This document shows, in pieces, positions 1-32,829 of a DNA stretch of 32,829 nt (position 1 is its first letter; every line of letters starts with the position of its first letter). Source of the DNA: a virus; IMG/VR virus record IMGVR_UViG_3300045988_113022; one strand, written 5' to 3'. Both the position numbers and the translations under genes were made by a program. The notes under the pieces were generated by a model. That model was not told the origin of the DNA. It saw only the letters and a list, made by a program, of their open reading frames with translations, and did no database searches.

Positions 1-55
1 TTCATAGACTATATAATCCAGGCTGTAAATTTGACGATATGGCGGTTTTTATTGG
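1..55. repeat. Terminal direct repeat identical to 32775..32829, interpreted as the assembly overlap of a circular or circularly permuted genome
   Basis: nt 1-55 (TTCATAGACTATATAATCCAGGCTGTAAATTTGACGATATGGCGGTTTTTATTGG) recur exactly as the last 55 nt. An ORF reads through the join in frame. Confidence 0.9.
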
Positions 56-821
56 CACAAGGCAAGGAGAAGGCAAGTCAACGCTGATAAGGTGGTTAGC
101 TTTAGATGATAAGTATTTTACTGAGGTTTCCGAGTTTGACGGTCAGCGTGGCATAGAAGCCCTTGAGGGTGCGTGGATTTGCGAGGTAGGCGAAATGTTA
201 GCTATGGTAAAAGCACAGCAGCAGGAAGCCGTTAAAGCGTATCTGACACGCATTAACGATAAGTATCGCAAGCCATTTGACAAGCGTGTGACAGAACACC
301 CTCGGCAGTGTATCTTCATCGGAACGACAAACAAGGCGCAGTTTCTCACCGATAAGACAGGGAACCGCAGATTTTACCCCGTTGTCGTTCACCAGTCGGG
401 CTATGAGTTGTTCGAGCACGAAGAAGAAATCAAAGCTGACATAAAGCAGTGCTGGGCTGAAGCATTGCACTTGTTCAAAGAAAACAAGCTCCTGCCGTAT
501 GCCGACCGCAAGCTGATTGATGTTATCCGCAAGGAGCAGGCAAACGCCGTTGAAGATGATTACCGTATCGGTATGATTACCGAGTACTTAAACGGCAAGT
601 CAGAAGTATGCGTTTTGCAGATATGGCAACACGCCTTGAATATGGGCGAATTTTCCAAACCGACTAAAAAAGACAGTCAGGAAATCGGCTTGATAATGCA
701 AAACCTTGAAAACTGGAAGAAACAGCCATATCCGAAAACTTTCGCAGGCTTCGGCTCGCAGCGATGGTGGCGAAAAGAAGGCTGTGCGGACATAGACAGC
801 TTTGACGATATAGACCTTTAA
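1..821 (+). CDS. VirE-family P-loop replication protein (primase/helicase-associated), C-terminal part. Continues from 32126..32829 across the circular junction.
   Basis: Walker A GTRQGEGKST. Blocks such as YNPGCKFDDMAVFIG, CIFIGTTN and GNRRFYPV are typical of the virulence-associated protein E domain. Codon phase at nt 3 matches the open frame at the window end. The track ORF 39..821 is the same frame. Confidence 0.8.
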   Translation, partial: HRLYNPGCKFDDMAVFIGTRQGEGKSTLIRWLALDDKYFTEVSEFDGQRGIEALEGAWICEVGEMLAMVKAQQQEAVKAYLTRINDKYRKPFDKRVTEHPRQCIFIGTTNKAQFLTDKTGNRRFYPVVVHQSGYELFEHEEEIKADIKQCWAEALHLFKENKLLPYADRKLIDVIRKEQANAVEDDYRIGMITEYLNGKSEVCVLQIWQHALNMGEFSKPTKKDSQEIGLIMQNLENWKKQPYPKTFAGFGSQRWWRKEGCADIDSFDDIDL

Positions 822-1118
822 CGGCAAAAATCACTACAAAGTACCCCGAAAATCTACTTTGTAGTGGACTTTGTAGAGGACTTTGTAGAGGTCGTAAAAC
901 CGCACTACAAAGCCGTTTTCCCTTAGTTAAACTACAAACTCTACAATAAATTGAGTATTTATATAAAATAGGGATAAAAAAATAAAAATGTATTTTTATA
1001 TTTTATGCAAACTTTGTAGAGTTTGTAGAGGTTTTCTGAAAAACCGCATAACAAAGCCAAAAACAAGCACTACAACGCAAAATCTACATTGTAGTTTGTA
1101 GAGAAAGGAGCTGAAACA
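822..1118. repeat. Iteron / inverted-repeat / AT-rich noncoding element, copy 1 (candidate origin or regulatory hub)
   Basis: Many copies of CTTTGTAGAG and its complement CTACAAAG. Tandem GGACTTTGTAGAG x2 at 866-890. Perfect 15-nt inverted repeat CTACAAACTCTACAA (932-946) / TTGTAGAGTTTGTAG (1014-1028) around a 67-nt AT-rich spacer. Palindromes CTACTTTGTAG (854-864) and CTACATTGTAG (1084-1094). Confidence 0.8.
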
Positions 1119-1401: not shown

Positions 1402-2028
1402 TTGAAAATCACTGAAATAAGCGTAAAGGAGCTAAAGCCTTACGCAAAAAACACGAAGAAGCACGACAAGGCGCAGATTGCAAACGTTGCAGAGAGTATC
1501 AAGCAGTATGGCTTTGTTCAGCCAATAGTCGTTGATAAGGACAACAACATTGTTATCGGACATTGCAGATATGAAGCGGCTAAAAAGCTGAAGATTGAAA
1601 CCGTTCCCTGCGTTTGCGTTGATGAGCTGACGGACGAACAAGTAAAGGCTCTGCGGATTGTTGATAACAAGAGCAATGAAAGCCCGTGGAATGTTGAAGC
1701 CCTGTTAGACGAGTTGGAAGATATTGATTTAAGCTGTTTTGATTTTGGCTTTGATGAAACCGAAAACGTTAAAGAAGAAGAAAGCAAAAACAAGCAGAAC
1801 AAAGAGTTAGAAAAAATGGAGCTGAAACAGTTTGAACACCACGATTACGTTGTTTTTGTTTTTGATAACACGCAAGATTGGCTTAATGTTGTAAACAAGT
1901 TCGGATTGAAAAGAATAGACGCAGGTTGGGAAAAGAGAAAAGTCGGACTTGGGAGGGTTGTAAAAGGTGAAAGACTTATTGAAGCGCTTGGATGTGAAAA
2001 TTTTGATACTGAGCCGTTCGAGGTTTAA
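1402..2028 (+). CDS. ParB/Srx N-terminal (ParB-like nuclease) domain protein
   Basis: TTG start 5 nt after AGGAGG. LKPYAKNTKKH...FVQPIVVD...IVIGHCRYEAAKKLKIETVPCV...ALRIVDNK matches the ParB-like domain usually fused to phage N6/N4 DNA methyltransferases. The C-terminal half is unassigned. Confidence 0.75.
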   Translation: MKITEISVKELKPYAKNTKKHDKAQIANVAESIKQYGFVQPIVVDKDNNIVIGHCRYEAAKKLKIETVPCVCVDELTDEQVKALRIVDNKSNESPWNVEALLDELEDIDLSCFDFGFDETENVKEEESKNKQNKELEKMELKQFEHHDYVVFVFDNTQDWLNVVNKFGLKRIDAGWEKRKVGLGRVVKGERLIEALGCENFDTEPFEV

Positions 2029-2716
2029 CAGTATTACTACAAACAAGCTGTTGCCAAATTTCGTTGAAATTCTTGTACCCGAAACGCAAAAAAGTGATTA
2101 TGAAAAAGCAGTCGAAAATCCAATTATTGCTATTCCTGATGAAATTAAAGGTTTGGGAGAAGTTCGAAATTGGGTTTTAGACCATTTCAAAGAACGTATC
2201 GTTATTATGATTGACGATGATATAAAATACGTTTATCGCTTGACAGGAGCTAAAAGTGAGCGTGTTGAAGATAAGGACGAAGTTCTTGACATCATTGTCA
2301 ACACAGCAGTAATGGCAGATGATGCAGGAGCTAAAGTTTTTGGATTTAATCAGAGTGATATTAGAAAGTTCAACGGTGCAGAGCCTTTTTCGCTGTGTGG
2401 TTGGCTCGGTTGTGTTATCGGCGTTATAGGTCGTGAACACAAATTTAGAAGTGACAAGTACAAAGTTGATATAGACTTTTGTATGAAATGCTTGCTGACC
2501 GACAGGATAATTTGGGAAGATAACCGTTACTTTTTTTCTCAAAGCCGAGATGATAATGTCGGAGGGAACAGCGAGTTCCGAACAGCTAAAGACTTCGAAA
2601 AGAGTTTAAACAGTTTGCAAAAAAAATGGGGTAAATACCTGATAGTCGGAATGCACAAAAATCAAATTCGTATAAGAACAAATGTTCAGAGAAAGCAGAG
2701 GTTAAAGTATGAGTGA
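1967..2716 (+). CDS. Putative GT-A-fold glycosyltransferase (DxD type), soluble
   Basis: GTG start 9-10 nt after GGGAGGG. The 62-nt overlap with the upstream gene leaves the start uncertain, and GTG 1994 is an alternative. N-terminal beta-strand KILILSRSR, then IVIMIDDDI about 85-95 aa in, as in GT-A enzymes. No TM segment. Family assignment is from pattern only. Confidence 0.5.
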   Translation: MKDLLKRLDVKILILSRSRFNSITTNKLLPNFVEILVPETQKSDYEKAVENPIIAIPDEIKGLGEVRNWVLDHFKERIVIMIDDDIKYVYRLTGAKSERVEDKDEVLDIIVNTAVMADDAGAKVFGFNQSDIRKFNGAEPFSLCGWLGCVIGVIGREHKFRSDKYKVDIDFCMKCLLTDRIIWEDNRYFFSQSRDDNVGGNSEFRTAKDFEKSLNSLQKKWGKYLIVGMHKNQIRIRTNVQRKQRLKYE

Positions 2717-3452
2717 TGTTTTAATAATCGGTTGTGGAGTTGTCGGAAACAATCTGTTAAAAGAACTTTCGGTATTAACTCCCGATGTTGTTGACAAATA
2801 CAAAAAGGAAAAAACAACAAAGAAAAAGGAAAAATACAAGTTCGGATTTGTTTGCGTAGACACGCCTTATGACAAGGAAAAAGAATTGTTTGACACAAGC
2901 GAAGTTGTTAATGCAATAAGAGAAAACGATTGCGAAATTTATGTTATAAAATCTACAGTTCCGATAGGCTTTGTTAATTCGCTCGGAAAAGAAAACATTG
3001 TTTTTTCGCCCGAGTATTACGGCGGTACACAGCATTGCAATAATTTTAAATTTGATTTTACAATTTTAGGCGGTTGTGAAAAGACTTGCAACAAGGTTAT
3101 ACAGCTTTTGCAAAAAGTGTATGACGCAAGACACAGATTTTTAAAAATGAAATCGTCGGAAGCCGAAATGGTTAAGCTGATGGAAAATTGTTTCCTTGCT
3201 ACAAAAGTTTCGTTCTGCAATTCTTTTTTTGAAATGTGCAAAGTATATAATTGTTCTTATGAAAGCGTTAGAGAGGGCTTTATCCTCGATGAGCGTTGCG
3301 GAGCTTCCCACTCGTTTGTTTATGAAGATAAACCGTACTGGGACAGTCACTGCTTGAACAAGGACACAGTTTGTGCCGCTATGCAAGGAAATGATTTCGT
3401 TAAAAATATTATCAAGTATAACGAAAGAGCAAAAAGTAGTAAAAAAATATAA
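2709..3452 (+). CDS. UDP-glucose/GDP-mannose dehydrogenase-family protein lacking the C-terminal nucleotide-sugar-binding domain
   Basis: Rossmann IIGCGVVGN, VCVDTP, IKSTVPIG, SPEY, central-domain block AEMVKLMENCFLATKVSFCNSFFEMC, and catalytic-Cys block WDSHCLNKD about 32 aa before the stop. Only 247 aa, where I recall roughly 390-440 aa for typical family members. Confidence 0.7.
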   Translation: MSDVLIIGCGVVGNNLLKELSVLTPDVVDKYKKEKTTKKKEKYKFGFVCVDTPYDKEKELFDTSEVVNAIRENDCEIYVIKSTVPIGFVNSLGKENIVFSPEYYGGTQHCNNFKFDFTILGGCEKTCNKVIQLLQKVYDARHRFLKMKSSEAEMVKLMENCFLATKVSFCNSFFEMCKVYNCSYESVREGFILDERCGASHSFVYEDKPYWDSHCLNKDTVCAAMQGNDFVKNIIKYNERAKSSKKI

Positions 3453-3460
3453 AAAACGTA

Positions 3461-3489
3461 TTGATTTTAAACCTTGTCTGTGATATAAT
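3461..3489 (+). promoter_or_regulatory. SigA-type promoter (TTGATT-17-TATAAT, TG-extended)
   Basis: TTGATT 3461-3466, 17-nt spacer ending in TGTGA, TATAAT 3484-3489. Confidence 0.6.
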
Positions 3490-3525
3490 TATTATAGAGC
3501 AGAAGCTCAGAAAGGAAGTAATTGT

Positions 3526-4071
3526 ATGAAATTATTTACACAGAGAGGTTATGATTTTTACGAGGTTGCAAGTGCTTTGCAGAAGTCGATAAGACGTGGA
3601 GATGTTAAACTTGCAGGGTATATGGCGTTAGAACTGTTCCCAAAGTATTCTGAATATTGTTGGAAAAGGCTGTTAACAATATCGGCAGAGGACTGTTACG
3701 GCGTGATAACAAAAGAGATAATGGCGTTGTATGACGCTTTTCACGTTATCAACAAAGGGAAAAAAGGTGAGGAACTGAAAGGCAGGGTTTTTATTTCAAA
3801 GGCTGTGATTCTTCTGTGTTCTGTTAAGCATAATCGTGACGCTGATTTACTCAGCAATTACGTTTATGATGCGTATTGCGGAGTATCTGATGAAATGATT
3901 GAAAAATTGTTTGACGAAGTAAGAAAAGAGCCTATTGACGTTCCCGAATATGTTTTTGACTGTCACACTTTGAAAGGGAAAAGAGCAGGGAAAACGAAAG
4001 AAGATTTTTTTAAGGAAGAAGAAGCGGCGTTAAAAAATAAACAAGCTTCTATTTTTGAATTTAAAGTATAG
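3526..4071 (+). CDS. Stand-alone MgsA/RarA C-terminal (MgsA_C-like) domain protein
   Basis: YDFYEVASALQKSIRRGDVKLAGYMALEL...LLTISAEDCYG...ISKAVILLCSVKHNRDA parallels the RarA block YDLISALHKSVRGS..DAALYW...LAIASEDVG...AIVYLACAPKSNA. There is no AAA+ ATPase module. Confidence 0.65.
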   Translation: MKLFTQRGYDFYEVASALQKSIRRGDVKLAGYMALELFPKYSEYCWKRLLTISAEDCYGVITKEIMALYDAFHVINKGKKGEELKGRVFISKAVILLCSVKHNRDADLLSNYVYDAYCGVSDEMIEKLFDEVRKEPIDVPEYVFDCHTLKGKRAGKTKEDFFKEEEAALKNKQASIFEFKV

Positions 4072-4075
4072 AGGT

Positions 4076-4216
4076 GATTAAACAATGCCAAACGTACAGA
4101 ATTTAAAGCCAGGCGCATACAAGCTGTCAAAGGAAGAAATGGCGAAAGGTGGAAGAAACTCGGCAGTGAAATGCTTGCCGCTATGTTGATGAAAAAAGCA
4201 ATGAATGGCGATGTCA
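4076..4216 (+). pseudogene. Degenerate duplicate of the terS 5' end (RBS + first ~26 codons, 91-nt internal deletion, frameshifted)
   Basis: 4076-4161 aligns with 5461-5546 and 4162-4216 with 5638-5693, with a few substitutions. The deletion joint lies at the 11-nt direct repeat GGAAGAAACTC that occurs twice in the intact gene. The reading frame breaks after about 30 codons. Confidence 0.8.
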
Positions 4217-4412
4217 GCGCTCCCGAAAGGCTTAGTGAAATCGTTCGGGCTTACCGAGATGTATCCGAAATGCCCCTCGCTTTTTAACAAAAGAGGTCAC
4301 GACCTGTTTTATGGTTTGCTTTATGAGTACGGCGTGAGAAAAGTAACAGAATATCGCTCTGATACCAGTTTTGAAAAAACTTATGGATTTTTCGTTTTTT
4401 AGCTTAAAATTG

Positions 4413-4441
4413 TTGACTTTTGTGTTAAATTGTGATATAAT
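4413..4441 (+). promoter_or_regulatory. SigA-type promoter (TTGACT-17-TATAAT, TG-extended)
   Basis: TTGACT 4413-4418, 17-nt spacer ending in TGTGA, TATAAT 4436-4441. Confidence 0.6.
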
Positions 4442-4494
4442 AATAATGTAGCAAAAAGCTACGAAAATCACATTGATTAAAGGAGAAAAAAGTT

Positions 4495-5277
4495 ATGCCG
4501 ATGATTTATGAACCCGCAGGAAAAGCTAGAGAGTACAGCCCTCTCGCACTCAACGTTTATTTAGGTTGTAGTCACAAATGCGAGTATTGTTACGCAAATG
4601 CGATGGCAAGAAGGAACGGAAACAGTTGTTATTTTGGAAACCCAAGCCCGAGAACAAAGGTTCTTGAAACACTTCCGAAAGAACTCAAAAAATGCAAAAG
4701 AGAGCAGGTGCTTCTTTCGTTTATCGGAGATGCTTATTGCGAAACAACAGACGATAATGCACTTACACGTTCTGTTCTTGAAATGCTTCTCGAAGCTAAA
4801 ATGCCTGTTGCAATCCTTACAAAAGGTGGAAAGCGTTGTCTTAAAGACCTTGACCTTTTTAAACGTTTCGGCGAGCATATTCAGATAGGCGCAACACTTA
4901 CGTTTGACAATGACGCTGATTCCCTCAAGTGGGAAAGTGGTGCGGTTCTTCCGTCAGAAAGACTTGAAACGCTTAAGATTTTACACGATAACGGAATTAG
5001 GACATTTGTAAGTTTTGAGCCTGTTATCGTTCCCGAACAGAGTTTACATCTTATGGAACAGAGCCTTGATTTTGTAGATGTTTATAAAGTCGGAAAGCTT
5101 AACAATTACAAAGGTCTTGACAAAGCTATAAACTGGACTGATTTTCTTGAGAAAACAGTAAAGCTTTTAAGAGAAAACAAAAAATCATTTTATATCAAAC
5201 ACGATTTAAGACTTGCCGCTCCGACCGTTAGACTTTACGGAAACGAAGTCCTTGCGGACGAACACAATGTCCAGTAA
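4495..5277 (+). CDS. Radical SAM protein (SplB/COG1533 'DNA repair photolyase'-like)
   Basis: LNVYLGCSHKCEYCYA contains the CxxxCxxC cluster in the context typical of SplB-like radical SAM enzymes. RBS AAAGGAG. It has its own promoter and terminator. Confidence 0.8.
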   Translation: MPMIYEPAGKAREYSPLALNVYLGCSHKCEYCYANAMARRNGNSCYFGNPSPRTKVLETLPKELKKCKREQVLLSFIGDAYCETTDDNALTRSVLEMLLEAKMPVAILTKGGKRCLKDLDLFKRFGEHIQIGATLTFDNDADSLKWESGAVLPSERLETLKILHDNGIRTFVSFEPVIVPEQSLHLMEQSLDFVDVYKVGKLNNYKGLDKAINWTDFLEKTVKLLRENKKSFYIKHDLRLAAPTVRLYGNEVLADEHNVQ

Positions 5278-5288
5278 ATTGTTTTATA

Positions 5289-5321
5289 GCGGTGGGCTTA
5301 TAGCCTGCCGCTTTTTATTTT
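5289..5321 (+). terminator. Rho-independent terminator
   Basis: 9-bp stem GCGGTGGGC/GCCTGCCGC (two G-U pairs), 5-nt loop, then TTTTTATTTT. Confidence 0.6.
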
Positions 5322-5337
5322 AGGAGGAAGCATTATA

Positions 5338-5466
5338 ATGACGATTGACGAAGCAAAGGAAATCATCAGAAAAACGAAAAGCCCGTATCTAAAAAGGGAT
5401 ATGGAAAAATTTATTAAACGCACTCAGAAAAAGCTAAAAGAAAAAGCTTTGCAGAAAGGAGATTAA
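5338..5466 (+). CDS. Small hypothetical protein (42 aa, basic)
   Basis: ATG 7 nt after TAGGAGGAAG. It is not in the ORF track because it is under 60 aa. No homology recognised. Confidence 0.35.
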   Translation: MTIDEAKEIIRKTKSPYLKRDMEKFIKRTQKKLKEKALQKGD

Positions 5467-5469
5467 ACA

Positions 5470-5814
5470 ATGCCAAACGCACAGAATTTAAAGCCGGGAG
5501 CATACAAGCTGTCAAAGGAAGAAATGGCGAAAGGTGGAAGAAACTCACATAAAAAGATGAGGGAGCGCAAGCTCCTTCGTGAATGCCTTTCCGAACTTTT
5601 GCAAATGGAATATGACACGAAACAGGGGAAGAAACTCGGCAGTGAAATGCTTGCCGCTATGCTGATGAAAAAAGCTATGAACGGCGATGTCAAGGCTTTT
5701 GAAGTCCTGCGTGACACAGCAGGAGAAAAGCCAGTTGATAAGGTTATGGTTGCAGATGTCGAAAAGACTATCATTGACGAAGTGGAGAAAATGGTAAAAG
5801 ATGAAACCGATTGA
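5470..5814 (+). CDS. terS: Putative terminase small subunit
   Basis: 114 aa, lying upstream of terL across the interposed methyltransferase gene. The basic N-terminus (NLKPGAYKLSKEEMAKGGRNSHKK) resembles small terminases of Firmicutes phages. The call rests on position and pattern only. Confidence 0.55.
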   Translation: MPNAQNLKPGAYKLSKEEMAKGGRNSHKKMRERKLLRECLSELLQMEYDTKQGKKLGSEMLAAMLMKKAMNGDVKAFEVLRDTAGEKPVDKVMVADVEKTIIDEVEKMVKDETD

Positions 5815-6769
5815 ATTATGGCACGGTGATTGCCTTGAATTGATGAAAGACATTCCTGACGGCTCTGTTGATTTGGTGCTGGCTGACCCGCCGTATGGAA
5901 CAACAGCTTGCAAATGGGATAGCGTTATTCCTTTTGAACCGATGTGGGAACAGTTGAAACGCATTGTAAAAAGAGGAGGTACAATTGTTCTCTTTGGTAG
6001 CGAGCCATTTTCAAGTCTTTTGAGGATAAGCAACATTGATTGGTATAAATACGATTGGGTTTGGGAAAAAGAGCAAAGCTCAAGCGGATTACAATCCAAA
6101 ATTGCACCAATGAAAAAGCACGAAAATATAAGTGTGTTTTTCCAAGCACCAACTGATGATACAACAAACGCATATCAATCCTTGAAAGAGTATTTTCAAT
6201 CCGAAAAAGAAAAAAGCGGATTAAATTCAAAGCAAATCAAAGAGCTGCTTGGAAACTATATGTCAAGTCATTATTTTACAAATGGATCGCAGTTTTGCAT
6301 ACCGTCTGAAGAAAACTATAAAAAATTGCAAAGCACGGGATTTTTTCAAGTGCCGTTTGAAGAAATAAGAAAGCAATATAAAGAAGATTGCCAAAACACA
6401 TACAATCCACAAATGACAGAGGGAAAGGCATACAAGGGGCATTTCGCGCCCGGAGCAGAGGTACACGGAAAGGCAACCCATTATGTGAAAGATAATAGCG
6501 GAACAAGATACCCTACAAGTATTTTGAAATTCAACAGAGCAAAAGGACTGCACCTGACACAAAAACCCGTTGCCTTGCTTGAATACCTTATCCGTACATA
6601 TACTAACAGCTGTGAAACCGTTCTTGACTTTACGATGGGTAGCGGAAGCACTGGCGTTGCTTGCGTAAACACTAACCACCGCTTTATCGGCATTGAACTT
6701 GATGAGGGATATTTCAACACCGCAAAAAAAAGAATTGAGGAAGCCTATGACGAGAGAACAAGCGGTTAA
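5801..6769 (+). CDS. DNA methyltransferase, beta-class N6-adenine/N4-cytosine family (DPPY)
   Basis: Motif IV VLADPPYG near the N-terminus and motif I FTMGSGSTGVAC near the C-terminus, with LTQKPVALLEYLI between them. Overlaps terS by 14 nt and terL by 23 nt. Confidence 0.85.
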   Translation: MKPIELWHGDCLELMKDIPDGSVDLVLADPPYGTTACKWDSVIPFEPMWEQLKRIVKRGGTIVLFGSEPFSSLLRISNIDWYKYDWVWEKEQSSSGLQSKIAPMKKHENISVFFQAPTDDTTNAYQSLKEYFQSEKEKSGLNSKQIKELLGNYMSSHYFTNGSQFCIPSEENYKKLQSTGFFQVPFEEIRKQYKEDCQNTYNPQMTEGKAYKGHFAPGAEVHGKATHYVKDNSGTRYPTSILKFNRAKGLHLTQKPVALLEYLIRTYTNSCETVLDFTMGSGSTGVACVNTNHRFIGIELDEGYFNTAKKRIEEAYDERTSG

Positions 6770-10387: not shown

Positions 10388-10843
10388 ATGGGTGTTAAAG
10401 TAACAAGTAAAGATAACACGGACGAAGTGCTTGACCGTATGGAAAAGGCTTTTGAACGTGGCTTAAAGGCTTGCGGAATGACCGCAGAAGCATATGCAAA
10501 AGACACGCTTACCGACCAAGTATACAGTGTTGACGAAAGCAAGCTTGACTATGTGCTGACAGGCAGACTGCGAAACAGCATAACTTACGCTATCGGGGGC
10601 AAGTCTGCCGCCATAAGCAGTTACAAAGCTGATAAGCCAGGCTATAAAGGCGGCTCTTATTCGGGCAATGCACCCGAGGAAGATAAGCCATACGTTGCAG
10701 TAGGTACGAACGTAAAGTATGCTATCGGCATTGAAGAAGGAACGCATCGTAAAAAAGGAGCAGTGCATTTTCTGTTGAAAGCGGCTTCCGGACATCAAGA
10801 AGAGTACGAAAAGCTGATAAAAGAAAGCATGGAAAACGCTTGA
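10388..10843 (+). CDS. HK97 gp10-family-like virion protein
   Basis: GRLRNSITY...VAVGTNVKYAIGIEEGT resembles the gp10 family signature. Its position ahead of the scaffold gene is atypical. Confidence 0.5.
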   Translation: MGVKVTSKDNTDEVLDRMEKAFERGLKACGMTAEAYAKDTLTDQVYSVDESKLDYVLTGRLRNSITYAIGGKSAAISSYKADKPGYKGGSYSGNAPEEDKPYVAVGTNVKYAIGIEEGTHRKKGAVHFLLKAASGHQEEYEKLIKESMENA

Positions 10844-10868
10844 CAAAAAAGAAAAAATTGTATATAAT
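10840..10868 (+). promoter_or_regulatory. SigA-type promoter (TTGACA-17-TATAAT)
   Basis: TTGACA 10840-10845, 17-nt spacer, TATAAT 10863-10868. Confidence 0.5.
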
Positions 10869-12832: not shown

Positions 12833-13258
12833 ATGCTGACGGAATTATGTAGAGAGTGTCGCAACTGGTTCACAACCGACAGCGACAAGCACAGCGGTGA
12901 CTTTACAATTTCAGACGGCGGTATCACGCCGTTTGATTTTGTACTGAGCGGGCAGTATTTCCGCATTATGGGAAGTCACTTCAATGACGGGGTTTATAAA
13001 AACGTTCCCGAAGAAGTCGCAAAACTGACGGCTGAAACGTTTACAGGGCAGATATGGGCAATGCGTGTTCCTCCTGCGTTTATTGACCTATCGGGGAAGA
13101 TTGAAGAGTACATCGCCAAAAACGAAAAAGAAATTTCTCCGTACACATCGGAGAGTTTCGGCGGTTATAGCTACACGAAAGCGGTAAACGATAAAAACGT
13201 TCCGCTGATGTGGCAAGAAGTTTTCAACAGCCAGTTGAAAGTTTGGAGGAAAATATGA
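12833..13258 (+). CDS. Hypothetical head-tail connector-region protein
   Basis: ATG 12833 has AAAGGA 9 nt upstream, whereas the track start at 12815 has no RBS. Called from position only. Confidence 0.4.
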   Translation: MLTELCRECRNWFTTDSDKHSGDFTISDGGITPFDFVLSGQYFRIMGSHFNDGVYKNVPEEVAKLTAETFTGQIWAMRVPPAFIDLSGKIEEYIAKNEKEISPYTSESFGGYSYTKAVNDKNVPLMWQEVFNSQLKVWRKI

Positions 13259-13608
13259 GTTTACTAAGCGAAGCAATGACCGACTGCGTGTTTTTGAACA
13301 AAAGCAAGGTTTCGGACGGTGAAGGCGGTTTCGTGGTAGAATGGACAGAAGGGGCTTCTTTCAAAGCGGCGATTGTTTTTGACAACTCGATGGAAGCCCG
13401 TACCGCCGAAAAGGCAGGGGTTACAAGTCTTTACACGGTTTCTGTTCCTATTTCGGTGGCGATTGAGTACCACGATGTTTTCAAACGCTTGTCGGACGGC
13501 AAGATTTTCCGTGCTACGTCTGACGGTGACGACAGCAAAACGCCCGCAAGGGCTACATTCCAAATCGCCCAGTTCACCGCCGAGGAGTTTGTGCCGACTA
13601 CAAAGTAG
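13255..13608 (+). CDS. Putative head closure / head-tail joining protein
   Basis: ATG 13255 follows GGAGGAAAAT and overlaps the upstream stop. Size and position fit a head-tail joining protein. Confidence 0.45.
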   Translation: MSLLSEAMTDCVFLNKSKVSDGEGGFVVEWTEGASFKAAIVFDNSMEARTAEKAGVTSLYTVSVPISVAIEYHDVFKRLSDGKIFRATSDGDDSKTPARATFQIAQFTAEEFVPTTK

Positions 13609-13818
13609 GCACTTTTCGGGCATTGTAGAGGGGAATGTAGTAGACTTTGTAGAGGTGCTAAAGTGGCTCTACGACTGGCTTTAAGGGTAGTTAAACTACA
13701 AACTCTACAAAATTTTTTATATTTATATAAAATAGGAGATTTTTTATAAAAGTAAATTTTATATTTATAGAAAACAATGTAGTTTTTGTAGTTTGTAGTA
13801 GAGAACGGGGGTTAGGAA
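13598..13818. repeat. Iteron / inverted-repeat / AT-rich noncoding element, copy 2 (paralog of 822..1118)
   Basis: The 23-nt TAGTTAAACTACAAACTCTACAA at 13688-13710 is identical to 924-946. The 16-nt ATTTATATAAAATAGG at 13721-13736 is identical to 957-972. AGACTTTGTAGAGG at 13642-13655. Palindrome CTACAAAGTAG at 13598-13608. Imperfect inverted arm TTTTTGTAGTTTGTAGTAGAG at 13783-13803. Confidence 0.8.
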
Positions 13819-14190
13819 ATGACAAAAGCGGCGGCACTGCATAGCTTTTATAGCTCGTTCGGGCTGACGGCTTACGAAGAAAATTCCGTCCCCGATGACG
13901 CAGAATTTCCGTATATTACTTATAATGTCACAACAGACAGCTTCGGCAATTATTCAACCGCAATGACCTTTTCGCTTTGGTATCGTTCAACGAGTTGGAA
14001 AGCGGTAAATGCAAAGTGCGAGGAAATCTCAGCGGCGATAGGTTTAGGCGGTCAGCTGATAGACTGTGACGGCGGTAAAATATGGATTAAAAGAGGACAG
14101 CCGTTTGCAAATTCAACAGGGGACGCAGACGATGAGTTAATAAAAAGAAAGATTATAAACGTGAGTGCAGATTACCTCACGTTAAACTGA
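13819..14190 (+). CDS. Hypothetical tail-completion-region protein
   Basis: RBS GGGGGTTAGGAAATG. Lies just upstream of the major tail gene. No motif recognised. Confidence 0.4.
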   Translation: MTKAAALHSFYSSFGLTAYEENSVPDDAEFPYITYNVTTDSFGNYSTAMTFSLWYRSTSWKAVNAKCEEISAAIGLGGQLIDCDGGKIWIKRGQPFANSTGDADDELIKRKIINVSADYLTLN

Positions 14191-14209: not shown

Positions 14210-14821
14210 ATGGGTAAATTTACGGTTATACCGAAAGATACGTTTGACGATTTACAGCTTGATGCAGGTGTGCTTTTAAAAAACTTTGTACCTGCAACAG
14301 CCGCCGCTCCGCAGGATAGCGATATTATCTGCGCTACGACAGGCGGCATAAACGCAACTTGTACGCCGACATATAGCGATTTAGGCGAGGACGTTGACAA
14401 CTGCCCGAACAATATGAAGGAACTTAAACACCTTGACGGTTGGGATTGCACGCTTGCTTTTACATCACTGGGAATGAGTACAGCGGCTATTAAAATGGCG
14501 CTTGGCAGTGCGGATATTGACACGCAGGACACGACAAAGGTCACGCCGAGAAGAGATTTAAAGCAGTCTGACTTCTCGGACATTTGGTGGGTAGGCGACA
14601 AAGCTGACGGCGGTATGGTCGCTATACAGCTTAAAAATGCCCTCTCGACAGGCGGTTTTTCGTTACAGACAACCAAAAGTGGCAAGGGTCATATTTCTGT
14701 CACACTGACAGGTCATGTGTCAATTGAAGCGCAGACCGATATGCCTATGGTCTTTTACTCGACAAGCGGCACAGCAGAAGCAACACAGGCTGACAGCGGC
14801 ACTGACAGCGGTACAGTTTAA
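14210..14821 (+). CDS. Putative major tail (tube) protein
   Basis: 203 aa, immediately upstream of the chaperone/frameshift pair and the tape measure gene. Ser/Thr-rich C-terminal tail. Confidence 0.6.
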   Translation: MGKFTVIPKDTFDDLQLDAGVLLKNFVPATAAAPQDSDIICATTGGINATCTPTYSDLGEDVDNCPNNMKELKHLDGWDCTLAFTSLGMSTAAIKMALGSADIDTQDTTKVTPRRDLKQSDFSDIWWVGDKADGGMVAIQLKNALSTGGFSLQTTKSGKGHISVTLTGHVSIEAQTDMPMVFYSTSGTAEATQADSGTDSGTV

Positions 14822-15213: not shown

Positions 15214-15491
15214 CTTCGGCTCTGCTCGATATGCCGAGAAAAATGAGCGTAAGGGGGCTGATTGCCGCAATGCCGATGATAATACAGCGGCAGAACGAGC
15301 AGTCAGCCTTTTGCAATTATATGGCTATGTGTGCGTTTAATCTGAATGAAATCGTTGCGAAAAGATACGGCGGCGCGTATATGACAACGAAATATCACGA
15401 TGTAGTCAATCCCCCGAAGGAAGAAACACGCACAAGCGAAGAAGTCATAAATGGAATAAAAGAAAAGCTGAACGCCCTCGGAGGTGATTAA
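14845..15491 (+). CDS. Tail assembly chaperone, -1 frameshift-extended form (GT-like)
   Basis: The open -1 frame runs from the slippery site to 15491, matching track ORF 15189..15491. This is the canonical siphovirus arrangement. Confidence 0.55.
15177..15183 (+). other. Programmed -1 ribosomal frameshift slippery heptamer T_TTT_TTC
   Basis: In the zero frame this reads AG[T TTT TTC], an X_XXY_YYZ heptamer. The -1 frame is open for about 100 further codons. Confidence 0.65.
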
Positions 15492-15971
15492 AATAAATTT
15501 ATTTGAAATGTTCGTCAAAATAGGAGTTGACGACCAAGCAAGCGATAAAGTAGGCAAAATCTCCTCATCGCTGAAAAAAGGTCTTGCGGCGGCGGCTAAA
15601 GTTGGTGCGGCAGCTGTTACGGCGGCGGCTACGGCTATAGGTGTGCTTGCAAAGAAATCCCTTGACGCATATGCCGATTTTGAGCAGTTGACAGGCGGTG
15701 TAGAAACGCTTTTTAAAACGTCTGCCGATACAGTAAAAAATTACGCCGCAAATGCGTATAAAACAGCAGGCTTGTCAGCAAACGAATATATGGAAACTGT
15801 AACAAGTTTCTCTGCATCGCTGATACAATCTCTTGGCGGCGATACAAAAAAAGCCGCTGAATATGCAAATACTGCGATAACTGATATGTCGGATAATGCC
15901 AACAAAATGGGTACATCAATAGAAATGATTCAGAACGCATATCAGGGCTTTGCAAAGCAGAACTACACGAT
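15484..15971 (+). CDS. Tape measure protein, exon 1
   Basis: Ends ...NAYQGFAKQNYT + AT. The start is uncertain (GTG 15484 or ATG 15508). Alanine-rich helical N-terminus typical of tape measure proteins. Confidence 0.8.
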
Positions 15972-16125
15972 TAAGTTTATCTATAGTCCGGCGGCGTAAG
16001 TAATTCGCCGTTGAGTGTGAGTGAACCTTACCAGGGGTGTGGGAGAAATCCTGCTAACGGGGGAAATCTAAGTGCAATAGCATACGACAATCCCGTGCCA
16101 AGTCCTAAGATATAAATAATTTTAC

Positions 16126-16154
16126 TTGTATAACAGGTGAAATTGTGTTATAAT
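16126..16154 (+). promoter_or_regulatory. Possible SigA-type promoter inside the intron, upstream of the HNH ORF
   Basis: TTGTAT-17-TATAAT with TGT-extended -10. It lies in the intron core, so the match could be coincidental. Confidence 0.35.
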
Positions 16155-16254
16155 ATCTAAGGAAAGGTGTAACGACTATCGGTTCGTCACCGAGTACATT
16201 ATCTATTGGTACGATAGTGGAAGTGCTCACTAACCTTTGACGGAGGAATTGACT

Positions 16255-16734
16255 ATGGAAATTTGGAAGCCTATTGAAGAATTGCCCGGTTATTCTGTTA
16301 GCAATAAGGGCAGAGTAAGAAAAGACAGCAACGGCCAAATAATGGTGCTTAATAAAAATGGTGGCTATTGCAGGATCACCATAACAAAGCACGTTCATAG
16401 ACTTGTTGCAAAAGCGTTTCTTGATGAACCTGAAAAAGAAGAAAAATGTTGGGTAGACCACATTGACGGAAACAGGTCAAACAACGATGTAAGCAATTTG
16501 CGATGGGTTACGCCATCCGAAAATTGTATGGCTTTTGGATATAAGAGCCGAATTGAAAACAAGAAACGAAAAGTAAAGGCTACAAATATCGATGGTCAAA
16601 CAATCATTTTTGAATCTCGACAAGCGGCGGCAAAATATTTTGGCTGTAGCGATACTCTTATTGATTACGGTCGTTTGTATAAAAGAGGAAACAAAAAGGG
16701 TTGGTCTTTTGAAAAGGTTAAAGATATAGTCTAA
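16255..16734 (+). CDS. HNH homing endonuclease with NUMOD4-like N-terminus
   Basis: MEIWKPIEELPGYSVSNKGRVR (NUMOD4 pattern). VDHIDGNRSNNDVSNLRWVTPSEN (HNH_3 pattern). RBS GGAGGAATTGACT precedes the ATG. Confidence 0.85.
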   Translation: MEIWKPIEELPGYSVSNKGRVRKDSNGQIMVLNKNGGYCRITITKHVHRLVAKAFLDEPEKEEKCWVDHIDGNRSNNDVSNLRWVTPSENCMAFGYKSRIENKKRKVKATNIDGQTIIFESRQAAAKYFGCSDTLIDYGRLYKRGNKKGWSFEKVKDIV

Positions 16735-16773
16735 TCCCCTTAAAAAATATCGGGAAACCGAGGGTATAAAATG

Positions 16774-18202
16774 GTTAGATAACCTAAAACTTGGCTACGG
16801 CGGTACTAAAGAGGAAATGGCTCGATTAATCGCTGACGCATCAAAAATGACCGATGTGCAGAAGGAGCTTGGCGTAACGGTTGACGAAACTGATATGTCG
16901 TTTGCAAACATTGTAAACGCAATTCACGTTGTGCAGGCGAACCTCGATATTATGGGTACGACATCGAAAGAAGCGTCAACGACAATACAAGGCTCGATAA
17001 GCAGTATGAAGTCAGCGTGGGAAAACTTGCTTGTAGGCATAGCAGATGATAAGCAGGACTTCGGAAAGCTTGTTGATAACTTTGTTGACAGCGTTGCAAC
17101 GGTCGGCAAAAACATAATGCCGAGATTAACGAAAATCCTTAAAGGTGTAGCAAAGTTAATAAAAGAAATTGTTCCCGAAATAGCAAAAAAACTGCCTGGA
17201 ATTGTCAACGATATACTCCCCGACCTTGCGAATGCGGCGGTTGATATTGTAAAGGGACTTGTTGACGCTTTGCTTGATAACGCAGAAACGTTGTTAGATA
17301 CTGGTATCAAAATCCTTGACACGATAATCAACGGCATAATCGAGTGCATACCGAAAATTAAAGACTTGATACCCACGATTATAAACGCCATTCTGCGCAT
17401 AATTGATGTTTTAACGGAACATCTTGATGAGTTTATAGAAGGCGGTATACAAATAGCACTTGCGTTGTTAGACGGTATCATAAAAGCCGTGCCAAAAATC
17501 CTTGAGAAGTTACCCGAAATTTGTCAAAAGATAATTGACGGTGTTTTACAGGGCTTATTTGGACTTGATGAAGGCGTATCAAATACATTCAGCACGGCTT
17601 TCGGGGGTGCTGTAGGCGGAGCAATTGAAATAATCAAGGGCATTTTATCATTCTTGAACGGCGATTTTAGCACAGGTCTTGAAAGTGCAGGAAAAGGTTT
17701 AAGTGATGTTGTCGGTGGTATTCTCGGCACAATAGACACTTTGTTTGGCACAAGTTTGTCACAGTGGTATGACGATACAAGGACGTTTTTTAATCAGTTC
17801 GGACAGGACTTATACAACGCAACGCACCAAATGGAACTTGCAAAGCTTGAGGAAAACGAACGCTTACAACAGCAGTCAAGCGGAGTAGGAATTACCGCGA
17901 ACGAGTATATGCGGCAGGGCTTGGCGGCGGCTGACGCTTTTGCAAAGGCTCTGAGTGATAAAGGTATAAACGAAGCAATATGGCAAGAAGCTGTTGAAAA
18001 GGGTATCGTCACTTATGATGTAAACGAAGCATATCAAACGTTAAAGGAAACAGGGCAGATAAAGACTGCAACAGCTGAGGGGACATCAAATCAGATAAAT
18101 ATATCGATGAAAATGAATAACGGCGTTGAGCTGGCAAGAGCGACCGCATATGACAATAGCAAAGCAAACCGTGTTGCAGGCAGGCAGATACCCGCGTACT
18201 AA
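16774..18202 (+). CDS. Tape measure protein, exon 2
   Basis: G16774 completes the ATG codon started by AT at the end of exon 1, and the frame continues LDNLKLGYGGTKEEMARLIADA.... The product is long, helical and Gly/Ile/Leu-rich. The track ATG at 16817 is internal. Confidence 0.8.
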
Positions 18203-23347: not shown

Positions 23348-23557
23348 ATGAAAGCAGAAGATTTCGGCAAGAGCCGTTCCGAGTGGGAAGCCCTGATTGA
23401 CGAGTGGGTATTTTCCGAGCGTGACAGACGTATCTTGAAGCTCCGCTTGCTTGACGGTCTGACTTATGAACGGCTTGCAGAAGCGGTTGATATGTCGGTA
23501 AGGCAAGTCAAAACTATCGTGTATCGTTGCGAAAAATTGCTGATAAAGCATATATGA
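23348..23557 (+). CDS. Sigma-70 region-4-like HTH protein (69 aa)
   Basis: RILKLRLLDGLTYERLAEAVDMSVRQVKTIVYRCEKLL matches the region 4 helix-turn-helix pattern. It is the last gene before a strong terminator. Confidence 0.55.
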   Translation: MKAEDFGKSRSEWEALIDEWVFSERDRRILKLRLLDGLTYERLAEAVDMSVRQVKTIVYRCEKLLIKHI

Positions 23558-23564
23558 ACAAAAG

Positions 23565-23592
23565 GCAGGGCTTCGGCTCTGCTTTTCGTTTT
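23565..23592 (+). terminator. Rho-independent terminator (UUCG tetraloop)
   Basis: Stem GCAGGGC/GCTCTGC, loop TTCG, then TTTTCGTTTT. Marks the end of the late operon. Confidence 0.65.
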
Positions 23593-23637
23593 GCAAAAAA
23601 AAAAATTAAAAAATATAAAAAAAGTGTTAAAAAAGTA

Positions 23638-23666
23638 TTGACAAATAGCCGTTTATCTGTTATAAT
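23638..23666 (+). promoter_or_regulatory. SigA-type promoter (TTGACA-17-TATAAT, TG-extended), likely the early promoter
   Basis: TTGACA 23638-23643, 17-nt spacer ending in TGT, TATAAT 23661-23666. Preceded by an A-rich UP-like tract. Confidence 0.6.
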
Positions 23667-23738
23667 ATATTACAGAGAGGGAAAGATAAATCCCTTAAAG
23701 AAAAAGACTATAAGCCCTAAAGGGCAGGAGGTAAAGAT

Positions 23739-24032
23739 ATGAAACAGTATTTAATAGCAACATCATTCACGATGAGCAACGTGCCACTTGAGTATGAGTA
23801 CACAGTCGAAAAGTGTGATATGCGTACTTGCCAAAGTAAGAATCACGAAAAGTATGTGTGGAGCGCAAGCCTTGAAAAGCTGTTTAAACTGGCTGACACG
23901 CTTGATGTAAAAATCAAGATAGGCAGAAGCGGAGAAATCCGTCTGATAATGCTTAACGGTGCAATGGCAAGATTGTTCTTGAAGCACATAAGGGAAAACG
24001 GTTGGAAAGGAGTAGAACAAAATGAACGCTGA
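23739..24032 (+). CDS. Hypothetical early protein (97 aa)
   Basis: Strong RBS GGAGGT. No motif recognised. Confidence 0.5.
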   Translation: MKQYLIATSFTMSNVPLEYEYTVEKCDMRTCQSKNHEKYVWSASLEKLFKLADTLDVKIKIGRSGEIRLIMLNGAMARLFLKHIRENGWKGVEQNER

Positions 24033-26590: not shown

Positions 26591-27202
26591 ATGGCGGTAC
26601 TCGTTATGATTTACGGTCAGAGCGGCACAGGAAAATCAACAAGTTTGCGAAACTTTACGAACGATGAAGTGGCGGTTATCAACGTGTCAGGCAAGCCGTT
26701 GCCATTCCGAAGCAAGTTGACAACATACGACACGGATAACTACGCAAAAATATCCAGTGCGCTTGGCAAAATCGAGAGAAAGTCTATCGTGATAGATGAC
26801 GCAACGTATCTGATGGTCAACGAGTTTATGCGCACGGCAAAGGTCGCAGGGTATCAGAAGTACACGGATATGGCGGTTAATTTCAATTCGCTTGTCGCAC
26901 AGGCTTCACAGCTTGCAAATGACAAAATCGTATATTTTCTCGGACATTCCGACCTCAAGGACGATGGCACAGAGCATTTTAAAACTATCGGCAAAATGCT
27001 TGATAATTACGTCACGGTCGAGGGAAAATTTACTATCGTTCTGAAAACGGTTGTGCAAGACGGAAAATATTATTTTGCAACGCACAATAGCGGACAAGAC
27101 ACGGTAAAATCTCCGCTCGGTATGTTTGAGAGCAATTACGTTGACAACGATTTGAAAGCCGTTGATGCGATTATCCGTGAGTATTACGGGATAGGAGGCT
27201 AA
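26591..27202 (+). CDS. P-loop ATPase (AAA_24 / Sak4-like phage nucleotide-binding protein)
   Basis: Walker A YGQSGTGKST at the extreme N-terminus and Walker B-like SIVIDDATY. Size and context next to an SSB-like gene fit. Confidence 0.65.
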   Translation: MAVLVMIYGQSGTGKSTSLRNFTNDEVAVINVSGKPLPFRSKLTTYDTDNYAKISSALGKIERKSIVIDDATYLMVNEFMRTAKVAGYQKYTDMAVNFNSLVAQASQLANDKIVYFLGHSDLKDDGTEHFKTIGKMLDNYVTVEGKFTIVLKTVVQDGKYYFATHNSGQDTVKSPLGMFESNYVDNDLKAVDAIIREYYGIGG

Positions 27203-27206
27203 GGCT

Positions 27207-27452
27207 ATGGCGTTTGAGAACGGCATATCGGGATATGTAGAAGCTCACGCAACGGTGACAGTTTACTTTCCGATAGACAGCAGAGGGAACGCATTTATCG
27301 ACTGCAAACACTGCCCGTTTTTATCGAGTAATGAGCGGATTTGTCAGCTGAATAAAGAAGCGGTAGCATTCCCGACAAAATATGTAGGCGGCAGATGTCC
27401 GCTTGAACCGATTGAAATCAAAAAAACAACACAGGAGAAAAACGAAAAATGA
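27207..27452 (+). CDS. Cys-rich hypothetical protein (81 aa)
   Basis: RBS AGGAGG. Contains CKHCPF...C...C. Confidence 0.45.
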   Translation: MAFENGISGYVEAHATVTVYFPIDSRGNAFIDCKHCPFLSSNERICQLNKEAVAFPTKYVGGRCPLEPIEIKKTTQEKNEK

Positions 27453-28009
27453 AAAAGGTAAACGTTGAAGCAAAAAAGATGAGCGAGGGCGGTCAGATAC
27501 CCGTTGACGGATATGTAGTCAGCATTCTGAGCGCAAAGGTCGAGGAAACAAACTACGGTGAAAAACTTGCGATAGGCTTTGACATCGCAGAAGGCGAGTA
27601 CAAGGACTTTTACAAGCAGAAGTTTGACGGCGACACAAGCGAAAATAAGAAGTGGAAGGGCGTAATTCGCCTCAACGTCCCAGATGAAAAGAACCAGTAT
27701 TATGACACGCAGAAAAAGGTGTTCGGTAACTTCCTTGCTTGCGTTGAAGAAAGCAACGAGGGTTACCATTGGGATTGGGACGAGAAGAAGCTGAAAGGCA
27801 AGTCGCTTGGCATAGTGTTCCGTAACAAGGAGTGGGAAAAAGACGGTCACAGCGGTTGGTATTCAGAACCGTACAGCGTCAAGAGTGCGCAGGACATTCG
27901 TGACGGTAAGTTTAGGATACCTAAAGATAAGCCGTTAGCGAACAAGCAGGAAACCGCCGCTCCCGTAGTGGCACAGCCCGAAGAGATTGACGAAGATTAT
28001 CCGTTCTGA
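27449..28009 (+). CDS. DUF669-like single-stranded DNA-binding protein with SSB-type acidic tip
   Basis: DGYVVSILSAKVEETNYGEKLAIGFDIAEGEYKDFY matches the DUF669 pattern. The C-terminus EEIDEDYPF mimics the bacterial SSB tip DDDIPF. Confidence 0.65.
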   Translation: MKKVNVEAKKMSEGGQIPVDGYVVSILSAKVEETNYGEKLAIGFDIAEGEYKDFYKQKFDGDTSENKKWKGVIRLNVPDEKNQYYDTQKKVFGNFLACVEESNEGYHWDWDEKKLKGKSLGIVFRNKEWEKDGHSGWYSEPYSVKSAQDIRDGKFRIPKDKPLANKQETAAPVVAQPEEIDEDYPF

Positions 28010-31572: not shown

Positions 31573-32139
31573 GTGATTTATGAGTACATAGCAGAAGAAA
31601 TCAAAGCACGAGTAAAAATCGGCGATGTGCTTTTTATGTATGGTTTTTCGGCAAATCCGAACAGCAAAAAACGCATACCTTGTCCGTTGCATAACGGCAA
31701 AGACAACAATTTCAGTTTTACTGACAAAATATATCATTGTTGGGTTTGCGGAGAACACGGAGATGTGATAAACCTTGTTCGCAAATTGTTTGGCTTATCT
31801 TTCGCCGAAGCTTGCGTAAAGATTAACCTTGATTTCGGGCTTGGCTTACCGTGTGGAGAAAAAATGTCATTGCGTGATAAATACAGGCTTGACAAAAAAG
31901 CAAAAGAACGCAAGGCAATAGCTCTTGCAGAAAAAGCTGAAACAGAACGCATTGACAACGAATTTTGGGATGCCTTGCACGAGTGGAGCAGACTTGACAG
32001 ACATCTTCGTGAACATAAACCAAAAACGCCAGATGAGCCATTGCATCCGTTGTTTGTAGAAGCATTGCAGAAAATCGGCTATGCTGAGTATAGGCTTGAC
32101 ATAGCAGAAACGAGGAAAAATAAAAATGATGGACGATAA
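31573..32139 (+). CDS. DnaG-type CHC2 zinc-finger protein (primase zinc-binding domain only)
   Basis: CPLHNGKDNNFSF...YHCWVCGEHGDVINLV is the zf-CHC2 signature. GTG start 10 nt after AAGGAGG. No TOPRIM domain recognised. Confidence 0.75.
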   Translation: MIYEYIAEEIKARVKIGDVLFMYGFSANPNSKKRIPCPLHNGKDNNFSFTDKIYHCWVCGEHGDVINLVRKLFGLSFAEACVKINLDFGLGLPCGEKMSLRDKYRLDKKAKERKAIALAEKAETERIDNEFWDALHEWSRLDRHLREHKPKTPDEPLHPLFVEALQKIGYAEYRLDIAETRKNKNDGR

Positions 32140-32829
32140 CCGCATACAGGCAATCACCGCTCCCGAGCAGCTATTTGACACAGAGTTGCTTCTTGACGTG
32201 TTCGATGAGGAAAATCCGCCCGAAGAACAGGCAAGGCTTGTTTCCGTGATGAGTATAAAGGCAAGAATGCTTGGAGTATACAAAGAATTTGCGGCAACGA
32301 TAAAAGCGTTCCAGAAGGCGCAACAGAAGTTGGCTAACGAGTACCAGCGGATAAATGCAAAGCAAAACGGCGGTATGATTTTGGATTTTGCGAGTGACGG
32401 AAAACCGCTAGCAACGATTGACAATTTTGTGCAGGTAATCGAAAACGACAGCAAGTTTGATAATCTGCGGTTTAATCTGTTGACCGAAAGCCCTGAAAAA
32501 ATAATTGACGGCAAAGCAGAGCGGTGGACAGATGCGGACGATGCCGAATTAAGGCGGTACATAGAAAAGAAGTATAAATTCCATTCGGCGCAGAAAAGCG
32601 ATGATGCGTTGAGGATAGTCCTTAAAGGTCGGCAATATCACCCGATAAGGCAGTTGATTGACCATTTCGAGTGGGACGGTGTAAGCAGGATAAACACATT
32701 CCTCACGAAGTGGACGAAATGCGATGATAACGAGTATACACGGGAAGTATCACGCTTAATCTTTTCAGGCGGCATTCATAGACTATATAATCCAGGCTGT
32801 AAATTTGACGATATGGCGGTTTTTATTGG
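32126..32829 (+). CDS. VirE-family replication protein, N-terminal part (open at the window end, continues at nt 1)
   Basis: ATG after GAGGA. The frame is open to the last nucleotide, and the track omits it because there is no stop. HPIRQLIDHFEWDGVSRINTFL is the typical VirE N-terminal block. Joined with 1..821 it gives about 489 aa. Confidence 0.8.
   Translation, partial: MMDDNRIQAITAPEQLFDTELLLDVFDEENPPEEQARLVSVMSIKARMLGVYKEFAATIKAFQKAQQKLANEYQRINAKQNGGMILDFASDGKPLATIDNFVQVIENDSKFDNLRFNLLTESPEKIIDGKAERWTDADDAELRRYIEKKYKFHSAQKSDDALRIVLKGRQYHPIRQLIDHFEWDGVSRINTFLTKWTKCDDNEYTREVSRLIFSGGIHRLYNPGCKFDDMAVFI
32775..32829. repeat. Terminal direct repeat identical to 1..55
   Basis: Exact 55-nt identity with the window start. 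Confidence 0.9.

Follow-up and report, generated by a model that had tools for sequence, protein, structure and literature searches.

A repeat element after a phage helicase gene and its second copy between head and tail genes: two candidate helicase loading sites in a 33-kb circular genome

Here we describe two related repeat elements in a tailed-phage genome, IMG/VR record IMGVR_UViG_3300045988_113022, of which the whole stretch of 32,829 nucleotides (nt) was analysed and is called the window below. Bases 1-55 recur exactly at 32775-32829, a 55-nt terminal overlap that marks the window as a circular assembly with a unit of 32,774 bp; all of its credible genes lie on the + strand, and the AT content of the genome is 57%. 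Element A directly follows the gene of a VapE/Rep1-like helicase, and element B falls between the head-completion and the tail genes. Over 25 kb of the window, megablast returned no match to GenBank phages; the element core had 0 matches in 185,579 reference genomes, from which no host or prophage context was gained, and tblastn of the helicase against cultured phages found relatives at 39% identity or less only. Neither A nor B is explained by a known RNA family, because an Rfam scan at gathering thresholds gave no match anywhere in the window. The features concerned, with those labelled A or B belonging to the two elements, are the following (the origin of the Staphylococcus aureus pathogenicity islands, SaPIs, serves as the reference type; ORF, open reading frame).

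31573..32139, + strand: DnaG-type CHC2 zinc-ribbon protein, the putative primase partner (Pfam Zn_ribbon_DnaG, 5.8e-11), adjoining the helicase gene on its 5' side
32126..32829, + strand: 5' part of the VapE/Rep1-like helicase gene, which crosses the circular junction and resumes at 56-821
1..821, + strand: 3' part of the helicase gene, holding the predicted C-terminal winged-helix domain; stop codon at 819-821
822..1118: element A, candidate primary SaPI-type repeat origin, with 13 TGTAG/CTACA pentamers (834-1101), one base past the helicase stop
860..888, + strand: A direct repeats, three TGTAG at 12-nt spacing (860, 872, 884)
932..945, - strand: A left arm, two CTACA (932, 941) at 9-nt spacing
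946..1014: A AT-rich centre, 69 nt, 87% AT, the presumed DNA unwinding element
1015..1028, + strand: A right arm, two TGTAG (1015, 1024), inverted relative to the left arm
1070..1101: A distal right repeat set, two inverted and two direct pentamers, not in B
13210..13608, + strand: upstream flanking gene of B, phrog_17977, after the head proteins
13598..13818: element B, candidate second origin-type copy, with nine pentamers and one degenerate
13624..13652, + strand: B direct repeats, three TGTAG at 12-nt spacing (13624, 13636, 13648)
13696..13709, - strand: B left arm, two CTACA (13696, 13705) at 9-nt spacing, within a 23-nt block identical to A
13710..13777: B AT-rich centre, 68 nt, 91% AT
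13778..13798, + strand: B right arm, three TGTAG (13778, 13787, 13794), part of a 38-nt imperfect inverted repeat
13819..14190, + strand: downstream flanking gene of B, phrog_17405/957, labelled head protein

The first pentamer of B overlaps the final codons and the stop of ORF 13210-13608, and the remainder occupies a noncoding gap of 210 nt (13609-13818); ORF 13819-14190, on the other side, precedes the major tail protein (14210-14821) by one gene. A preliminary description of this DNA, made from the letters alone, had placed such a gap between head-completion and tail genes and had taken B for a paralogous copy, of the same layout, of the element at 822-1118; both statements hold. The two align collinearly over about 220 nt with a mean column identity of 74%, and their parts follow in the same sequence: an inverted pentamer comes first, then three direct ones spaced by 12 nt, another inverted one (degenerate in B), an inverted pair spaced by 9 nt, the AT core, and two or three direct copies. 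Exact blocks of 23 nt (924/13688), 17 nt (956/13720) and 14 nt (879/13643) lie at a common offset of 12,764; the longest had been reported correctly, and the second had been counted as 16 nt. The separation of about 12.8 kb given at that time is likewise right for one arc of the circle, on which A and B stand 12,764 and 20,010 bp apart. This likeness is more than low-complexity AT similarity, as the exact blocks in register and the distribution of TTGTAGWG attest: all 13 occurrences of that motif in the window are within A or B, against 1.57 expected, and 0 of 100 shuffles reached 13. The pentamer TGTAG itself occurs 72 times in the window (43 expected), with 22 of the 72 within A or B. The inverted arms of both elements pair in a single-strand fold (z = -6.6 for A, -4.2 for B), a significant hairpin or cruciform potential, though one that the inverted repeats entail trivially. 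Within-genome identity of A and B, at 67-73%, is just slightly above the between-genome identity of A with A or B with B, at 62-65%; the shared indels and blocks are suggestive of concerted evolution, without being decisive.

We compared the junction that holds B in 36 loci with a relative of the gene at 13819. In 29 of them the two neighbours touch or overlap (-26 to +14 nt, mostly a 4- or 8-nt overlap), L005 being one with an overlap; the 29 include downstream genes with 93%, 80%, 74% and 70% identity to that of the window, and B was present in four near-identical contigs only. Judged by this synteny B is, as had been supposed, an insertion into a normally tight junction. Three other junction gaps were checked, two of which, in loci L010 and L025, had been candidates for independent insertions of other origin types; small ORFs fill both, and they were rejected. 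Outside this set of near-identical contigs, a second clade with TGTAG repeats and a 68%-identical helicase has its second copy at the same junction in 4/4 loci that reach it. In a pattern scan of IMG/VR the TGTAG-type core turned up in 27 contigs, 20 of them with two copies, and among contigs of at least 30 kb the proportion is 17/19; L078 reveals a second TGTAG cluster on one of the other two. By contrast, no element was found at the homologous junction of the GTTACA-class phages L089 and L090, the CCTGTCC-type core was found in 17 contigs with one copy each, and the empty-site contigs, which include IMG/VR 3300045988_089165, _010343, _042083 and _088524, gave no match to the TGTAG core pattern. 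On this evidence B travels with the TGTAG replicon and not with the structural genes, and two copies are present in nearly every near-complete genome of the TGTAG type. Five close relatives of the window allow a finer comparison: 0/45 pentamer positions of B vary, as against 21/61 third-codon positions in the flanking genes, and 23/163 of the other B positions do so. By these counts B is under selection, because its pentamers are invariant while 34% of synonymous sites vary.

The helicase, whose frame was rebuilt on the circularised sequence, has a full length of 489 aa. Pfam assigns it VapE-like_dom (4.8e-63) plus DUF5906, its 3' part matches a PHROG DNA helicase family (6.7e-61), and the best solved structure found by phmmer in the PDB is 7PDS_A (E=4.3e-49, residues 133-414), the complex of SaPI1 Rep1 with DNA (Qiao et al. 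2022; PMC9371898). By sequence, the protein is thus a homolog of SaPI1 Rep1. An AlphaFold2 (AF2) model of the helicase fragment gives residues ~170-250 (~400-480 of the full length) a per-residue confidence (pLDDT) of 77-94 and a helix-strand-helix-helix-strand-strand topology, so that this C-terminal domain is predicted to be a winged helix. The pairing of zinc-ribbon and helicase genes recurs in L059, L060 and L061. No DnaB-type protein was seen among the replication-module ORFs scanned, a subset of the ORFs, and the sole helicase found there is the VapE-type one. In SaPIs the Rep helicase loads itself and is also the initiator, and its C-terminal winged helix reads penta- or hexanucleotide repeats (PMC9371898, citing Ubeda 2007, 2012); the origin comprises 6-12 such repeats immediately downstream of the rep ORF, around an AT-rich centre with at least two repeats per side in opposed orientation (PMC9371898). 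Element A has every sequence feature of this published definition (PMC9371898). The likeness to SaPI1 (Rep1) and SaPI5 (PriRep5) thus extends to a homologous helicase, pentanucleotide repeats right after its ORF, an AT-rich centre flanked by at least two opposed repeats per side, and a repeat specificity that shifts with the C-terminal domain of the helicase. It has limits: the genome here is that of a 33-kb tailed phage and not of a satellite, A holds 13 repeats with extra distal sets, and the element recurs 12.8 kb away, an arrangement not described for SaPIs in PMC9371898.

How the repeats relate to the helicase was followed in 79 IMG/VR loci that encode homologs of the helicase (44-99% identity), 76 of them with enough downstream sequence, and in three contigs from other collections. 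In most of these 76 loci and three contigs one short motif is strongly enriched in the 450 nt past the helicase stop, and wherever the clusters were read by eye the layout was that of A with another motif sequence. The TGTAG class is seen in L059 and L065, GGTTACA repeats in L060 and L090, GGAACAA repeats in L061 and CTGTCC variants in L110, L114 and L127, while GTCAAC and GTTAAC are further motifs at this position; the class of repeat differs from one helicase clade to another, and the C-terminal domain of the helicase is more variable than its ATPase core. In the pair L114 and L127 the ATPase cores are 100% identical and the C-terminal domains 56%, and the repeats read CTGTCCTA in one and CCTGTCCC in the other, on either side of a nearly identical AT core. 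Same-class pairs with 97-99% core identity, on the other hand, have C-terminal domains that are 92-100% identical. The repeat sequence thus tracks the C-terminal domain of the helicase.

Across L114 (11480-11700), L127 (11440-11650) and L110 (10370-10570), helicase cores are 97-100% and C-terminal domains 56-60% identical, with the repeat variants CTGTCCTA, CCTGTCCC and GTGTCCAC set around nearly the same AT core, a natural specificity swap. The helicases of L108 and L109 are 99% identical in the core and 86% in the C-terminal domain, and their repeats, GTCAAC and GTTAAC as classed by 6-mer enrichment only, are one base apart. Locus L064 (positions 4371-5000; IMG/VR 3300045988_100371), a near-identical relative of the window, has its helicase stop and element A separated by an inserted ORF of 209 aa, whose PPC motif may mark a cytosine methylase; because this ORF intervenes, the origin does not always adjoin the helicase gene.

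We read B as a functional helicase-binding site of the origin type, and A and B together as loading sites of the phage helicase, a reading to which we give a probability of about 0.72. Among the four mechanisms that the preliminary description had listed (two origins, dispersed partition sites, a shared promoter-operator and recombination substrates), two origins is the one favoured, because A fits the SaPI-type definition, a Rep1-like helicase gene adjoins it and the repeats change with the C-terminal domain. We infer binding, melting, and firing or stalling along the following lines. By analogy with SaPI Rep, the C-terminal winged helix would recognise the TGTAG pentamers of A and B; hexamers would form on the opposed repeat pairs either side of the AT-rich centre of about 69 nt, the centre would then melt, and the zinc-ribbon primase partner and the host polymerase would begin synthesis. 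A would be the ancestral origin, adjoining the 3' end of the helicase gene, a placement shared with SaPIs and Streptococcus phage Sfi21, and B would be a copy of its core set down between the head-completion and the tail genes and maintained by selection in all lineages with TGTAG repeats. Of the possible roles for B, firing as a second origin is the most likely, since no core feature of the published definition is missing from it.

Several observations weigh against this reading. The sequence match to Rep1 spans helicase residues 133-414 and leaves the C-terminal domain unaligned; the AF2 fragment model has a mean pLDDT of 55.6, with the C-terminal domain alone confident and the rest poor, and in Foldseek the top match, again 7PDS, is weak (E=2.6e-3), winged-helix domains following at E>0.3. 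B is without the distal right set of A (1070-1101) and lies 12.8 kb from rep, not immediately downstream of it as in the published definition. A weak promoter-like match, TCTACA-18-TAAAAT (9/12), is found at the same relative position in both AT cores. The region coding for the C-terminal domain is adjacent to element A, so that linkage may explain part of the co-variation, although the conserved AT core between the changed repeats of L114 and L127 argues against simple linkage. Lastly, a 209-nt gap in the replication module holds three G-rich 31-nt repeats (28978-29160; GTTCCGTTAAGGCTTGGCAAGGTTAGGCAGG, 71-87% identical) without an AT-rich tract, which could be a further cis-acting site of replication or recombination.

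Two known phage systems help to place the pair. Bacillus phage SPP1 carries two origins, oriL and oriR, at a distance of about 13 kb on its circular genome, and oriR breaks into a late morphogenesis gene order that is otherwise conserved (PMC6316719, PMC3485210). The phage described here likewise has two similar elements of repeats and AT-rich sequence, about 13 kb apart, with the second within late morphogenesis genes, and it encodes an annealing recombinase and a resolvase-type nuclease, as SPP1 does. To call two dispersed copies in a 33-kb phage unusual, as had been done, was therefore an overstatement: SPP1 has two origins at this distance, and in the present phage group two copies are the rule. 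The initiators differ, SPP1 using an origin binder (gp38), a loader (gp39) and a DnaB-type helicase (gp40) where we find a single VapE-type candidate, and oriL lies inside gene 38 whereas the primary origin here is intergenic. Streptococcus thermophilus phage Sfi21 (NC_000872) carries at 34487-34784 a misc_feature annotated 'origin of replication, 302 bp non-coding region, phage inhibitory sequence'; this noncoding stretch of about 300 bp comes straight after a primase/NTPase gene and has opposed paired GTTACT repeats around an AT-rich core, with more repeats further out. No other origin feature is annotated in the 12 kb examined, and because the Sfi21 primase has no detectable homology to the helicase of the window (E=0.27), Sfi21 resembles the present phage in layout alone. 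By these comparisons A would be a member of the SaPI/Sfi21 kind of origin, a known type and not a new kind of system, and what appears new is the conserved pair of A and B, paralleling the dual origin of SPP1 with an unrelated initiator.

The comparison with SPP1 also suggests a close alternative for the role of B. In that phage the fork is proposed to stall at oriR bound by gp38, with restart through a resolvase, an annealing recombinase and an SSB (a protein binding single-stranded DNA) (PMC6316719, PMC3485210). B might similarly bind the helicase without firing, as a roadblock that stalls the fork from A and brings about a recombination-dependent change from circle-to-circle replication to concatemers, or it might serve as a partner site in cis of the kind that crr provides in P4. 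In P4, the alpha protein is a primase-helicase whose C-terminal DNA-binding domain binds short repeats at two sites, ori and crr, and crr is a required partner site built unlike the origin. The window offers the following genes for a switch modelled on SPP1.

26591-27202: Sak4-like annealing protein, upstream of the helicase gene
29656-30174: ERCC4-type nuclease, upstream of the helicase gene

ORF 27449-28009 is at the position expected for an SSB, but is without a family assignment. The two proteins make up a recombination toolkit comparable to that of SPP1, and B, lacking the distal set of A, may be a weaker or non-firing site. On the other side, B retains the AT-rich centre with all the core origin features, a centre that a pure binding site would not need, and the fork barrier of SPP1 is itself only a proposal. 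We hold a non-firing B to be unlikely, if far from negligible; it would refine rather than oppose the view of A and B as helicase loading sites. Similarly doubtful, in our estimate, is a more specific form of the idea, in which a self-loading helicase of the SaPI Rep type uses the two sites as a fixed two-site replicon and B is a programmed, helicase-bound fork barrier or timing device, switching replication to concatemers or coupling tail-gene expression to replication, an independent reinvention of oriL and oriR of SPP1 around an unrelated initiator.

A and B could instead be regulated middle or late promoter-operator cassettes, with a phage activator or repressor on the TGTAG repeats and a transcript that begins in the AT core and enters the gene block downstream, as the preliminary description had also proposed. 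Each lies directly upstream of a block of coding-strand genes, no terminator-like site was found in or just before either, the weak match noted above recurs in both AT cores, and cores of different repeat classes have a short motif in common (compare TATAAAATAGG, TAATATAAAATGG and ATAATAAATAGGG). The match in A, however, is mirrored on the minus strand and so reflects the palindromic layout, and the window has perfect promoters elsewhere, one of them about 200 nt 3' of A:

1326-1354, coding strand: perfect TTGACA-17-TATAAT match, at or just before a gene gap
10840-10868, coding strand: perfect TTGACA-17-TATAAT match, at or just before a gene gap
23638-23666, coding strand: perfect TTGACA-17-TATAAT match, at or just before a gene gap
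31365-31393, coding strand: perfect TTGACA-17-TATAAT match, at or just before a gene gap

The match at 23638 falls inside ORF 23527-23742, and 11/12 matches are found at 4413 and 20644. Also against it, relatives express the same tail genes without any gap, and the repeats co-vary with the C-terminal domain of the helicase. As a general binder of the repeats, the only small helix-turn-helix (HTH) candidate is a 69-aa protein (23348-23557) with nothing but a sigma-70 region-4-like HTH; it was rejected, having no homolog in L059 (14.7 kb, TGTAG repeats), and matches were likewise absent from L060 and L061, each of which has an element. Its gene opens the early region and is the first beyond the lysis genes. 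The promoter-operator proposal is thereby weakened, and we keep it as an improbable alternative of low weight.

It is very improbable that B is a functionless relic, a selfish insertion resembling a miniature inverted-repeat transposable element, or a mere recombination substrate with A. B is inserted relative to most relatives and ends in inverted repeat copies (CTACAAA ... TTTGTAG), and A and B are direct repeats, recombination between which would split the circle into parts of 12.8 and 20 kb. Yet there are two copies only per genome, always at the same two positions, the pentamers of B stay invariant against 34% variation at synonymous sites, and the arrangement of A and B is kept across clades whose helicases are 68% identical; filled and empty sites show no evident target-site duplication, and the longest exact block between A and B is just 23 nt.

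A role of A and B as scattered centromeres, or as loading sites of the ParB_N protein (1402-2028) whose gene lies about 280 nt downstream of A, is hardly credible, and this protein was rejected as the binder on co-occurrence, for L060 has its own repeat element and no ParB_N gene in 19.6 kb, the ParB_N domain of L061 forms one protein with a DNA methylase and is encoded about 5 kb upstream of the element, no ParA was seen among the ORFs scanned, and the DNA-modification genes that follow the ParB_N gene suggest a nuclease or modification role.

If A and B are indeed helicase loading sites, the Rep/origin module of the SaPIs would not be restricted to satellites and would be the standard replicon of many uncultured tailed phages. 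Origins could then be read from the sequence alone, as repeats directly 3' of a helicase gene whose C-terminal domain sets the specificity, and the conserved second copy would be a second, independent case of the dual-origin layout of SPP1. The role of a late origin copy, second start or fork barrier, would become addressable in a simpler system with a one-protein initiator. The natural swaps, in which the same ATPase core is combined with another C-terminal domain and other repeats, are material for the evolution of initiator specificity.

Elsewhere in the window, the gene order after A is a 67-aa ORF, the ParB_N protein, DNA-modification genes, terminase, portal and capsid. The DNA-modification cluster 3' of A spans 1402-6769, begins with the ParB_N protein and includes the following members, from which we conclude that the phage DNA is probably hypermodified.

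1967-2716: TET-associated glycosyltransferase
2709-3452: UDP-glucose-dehydrogenase-like protein
4495-5277: radical-SAM protein
5801-6769: N6/N4 methylase

In the late region, the tape-measure gene is in two parts, N-terminal (15484-15999) and C-terminal (16817-18202), separated by an HNH/NUMOD4 endonuclease gene (16237-16734); the Rfam intron families gave no match at the split gene (15484-18202). Within the modification cluster, the 5' end of a small-terminase-like gene is doubled (4072-4238 and 5457-5714; 96% and 85% identity), and the two copies flank a 65-aa ORF and the radical-SAM gene at 4495-5277; the arrangement at 4072-5714 looks like a cassette insertion that has copied its target.

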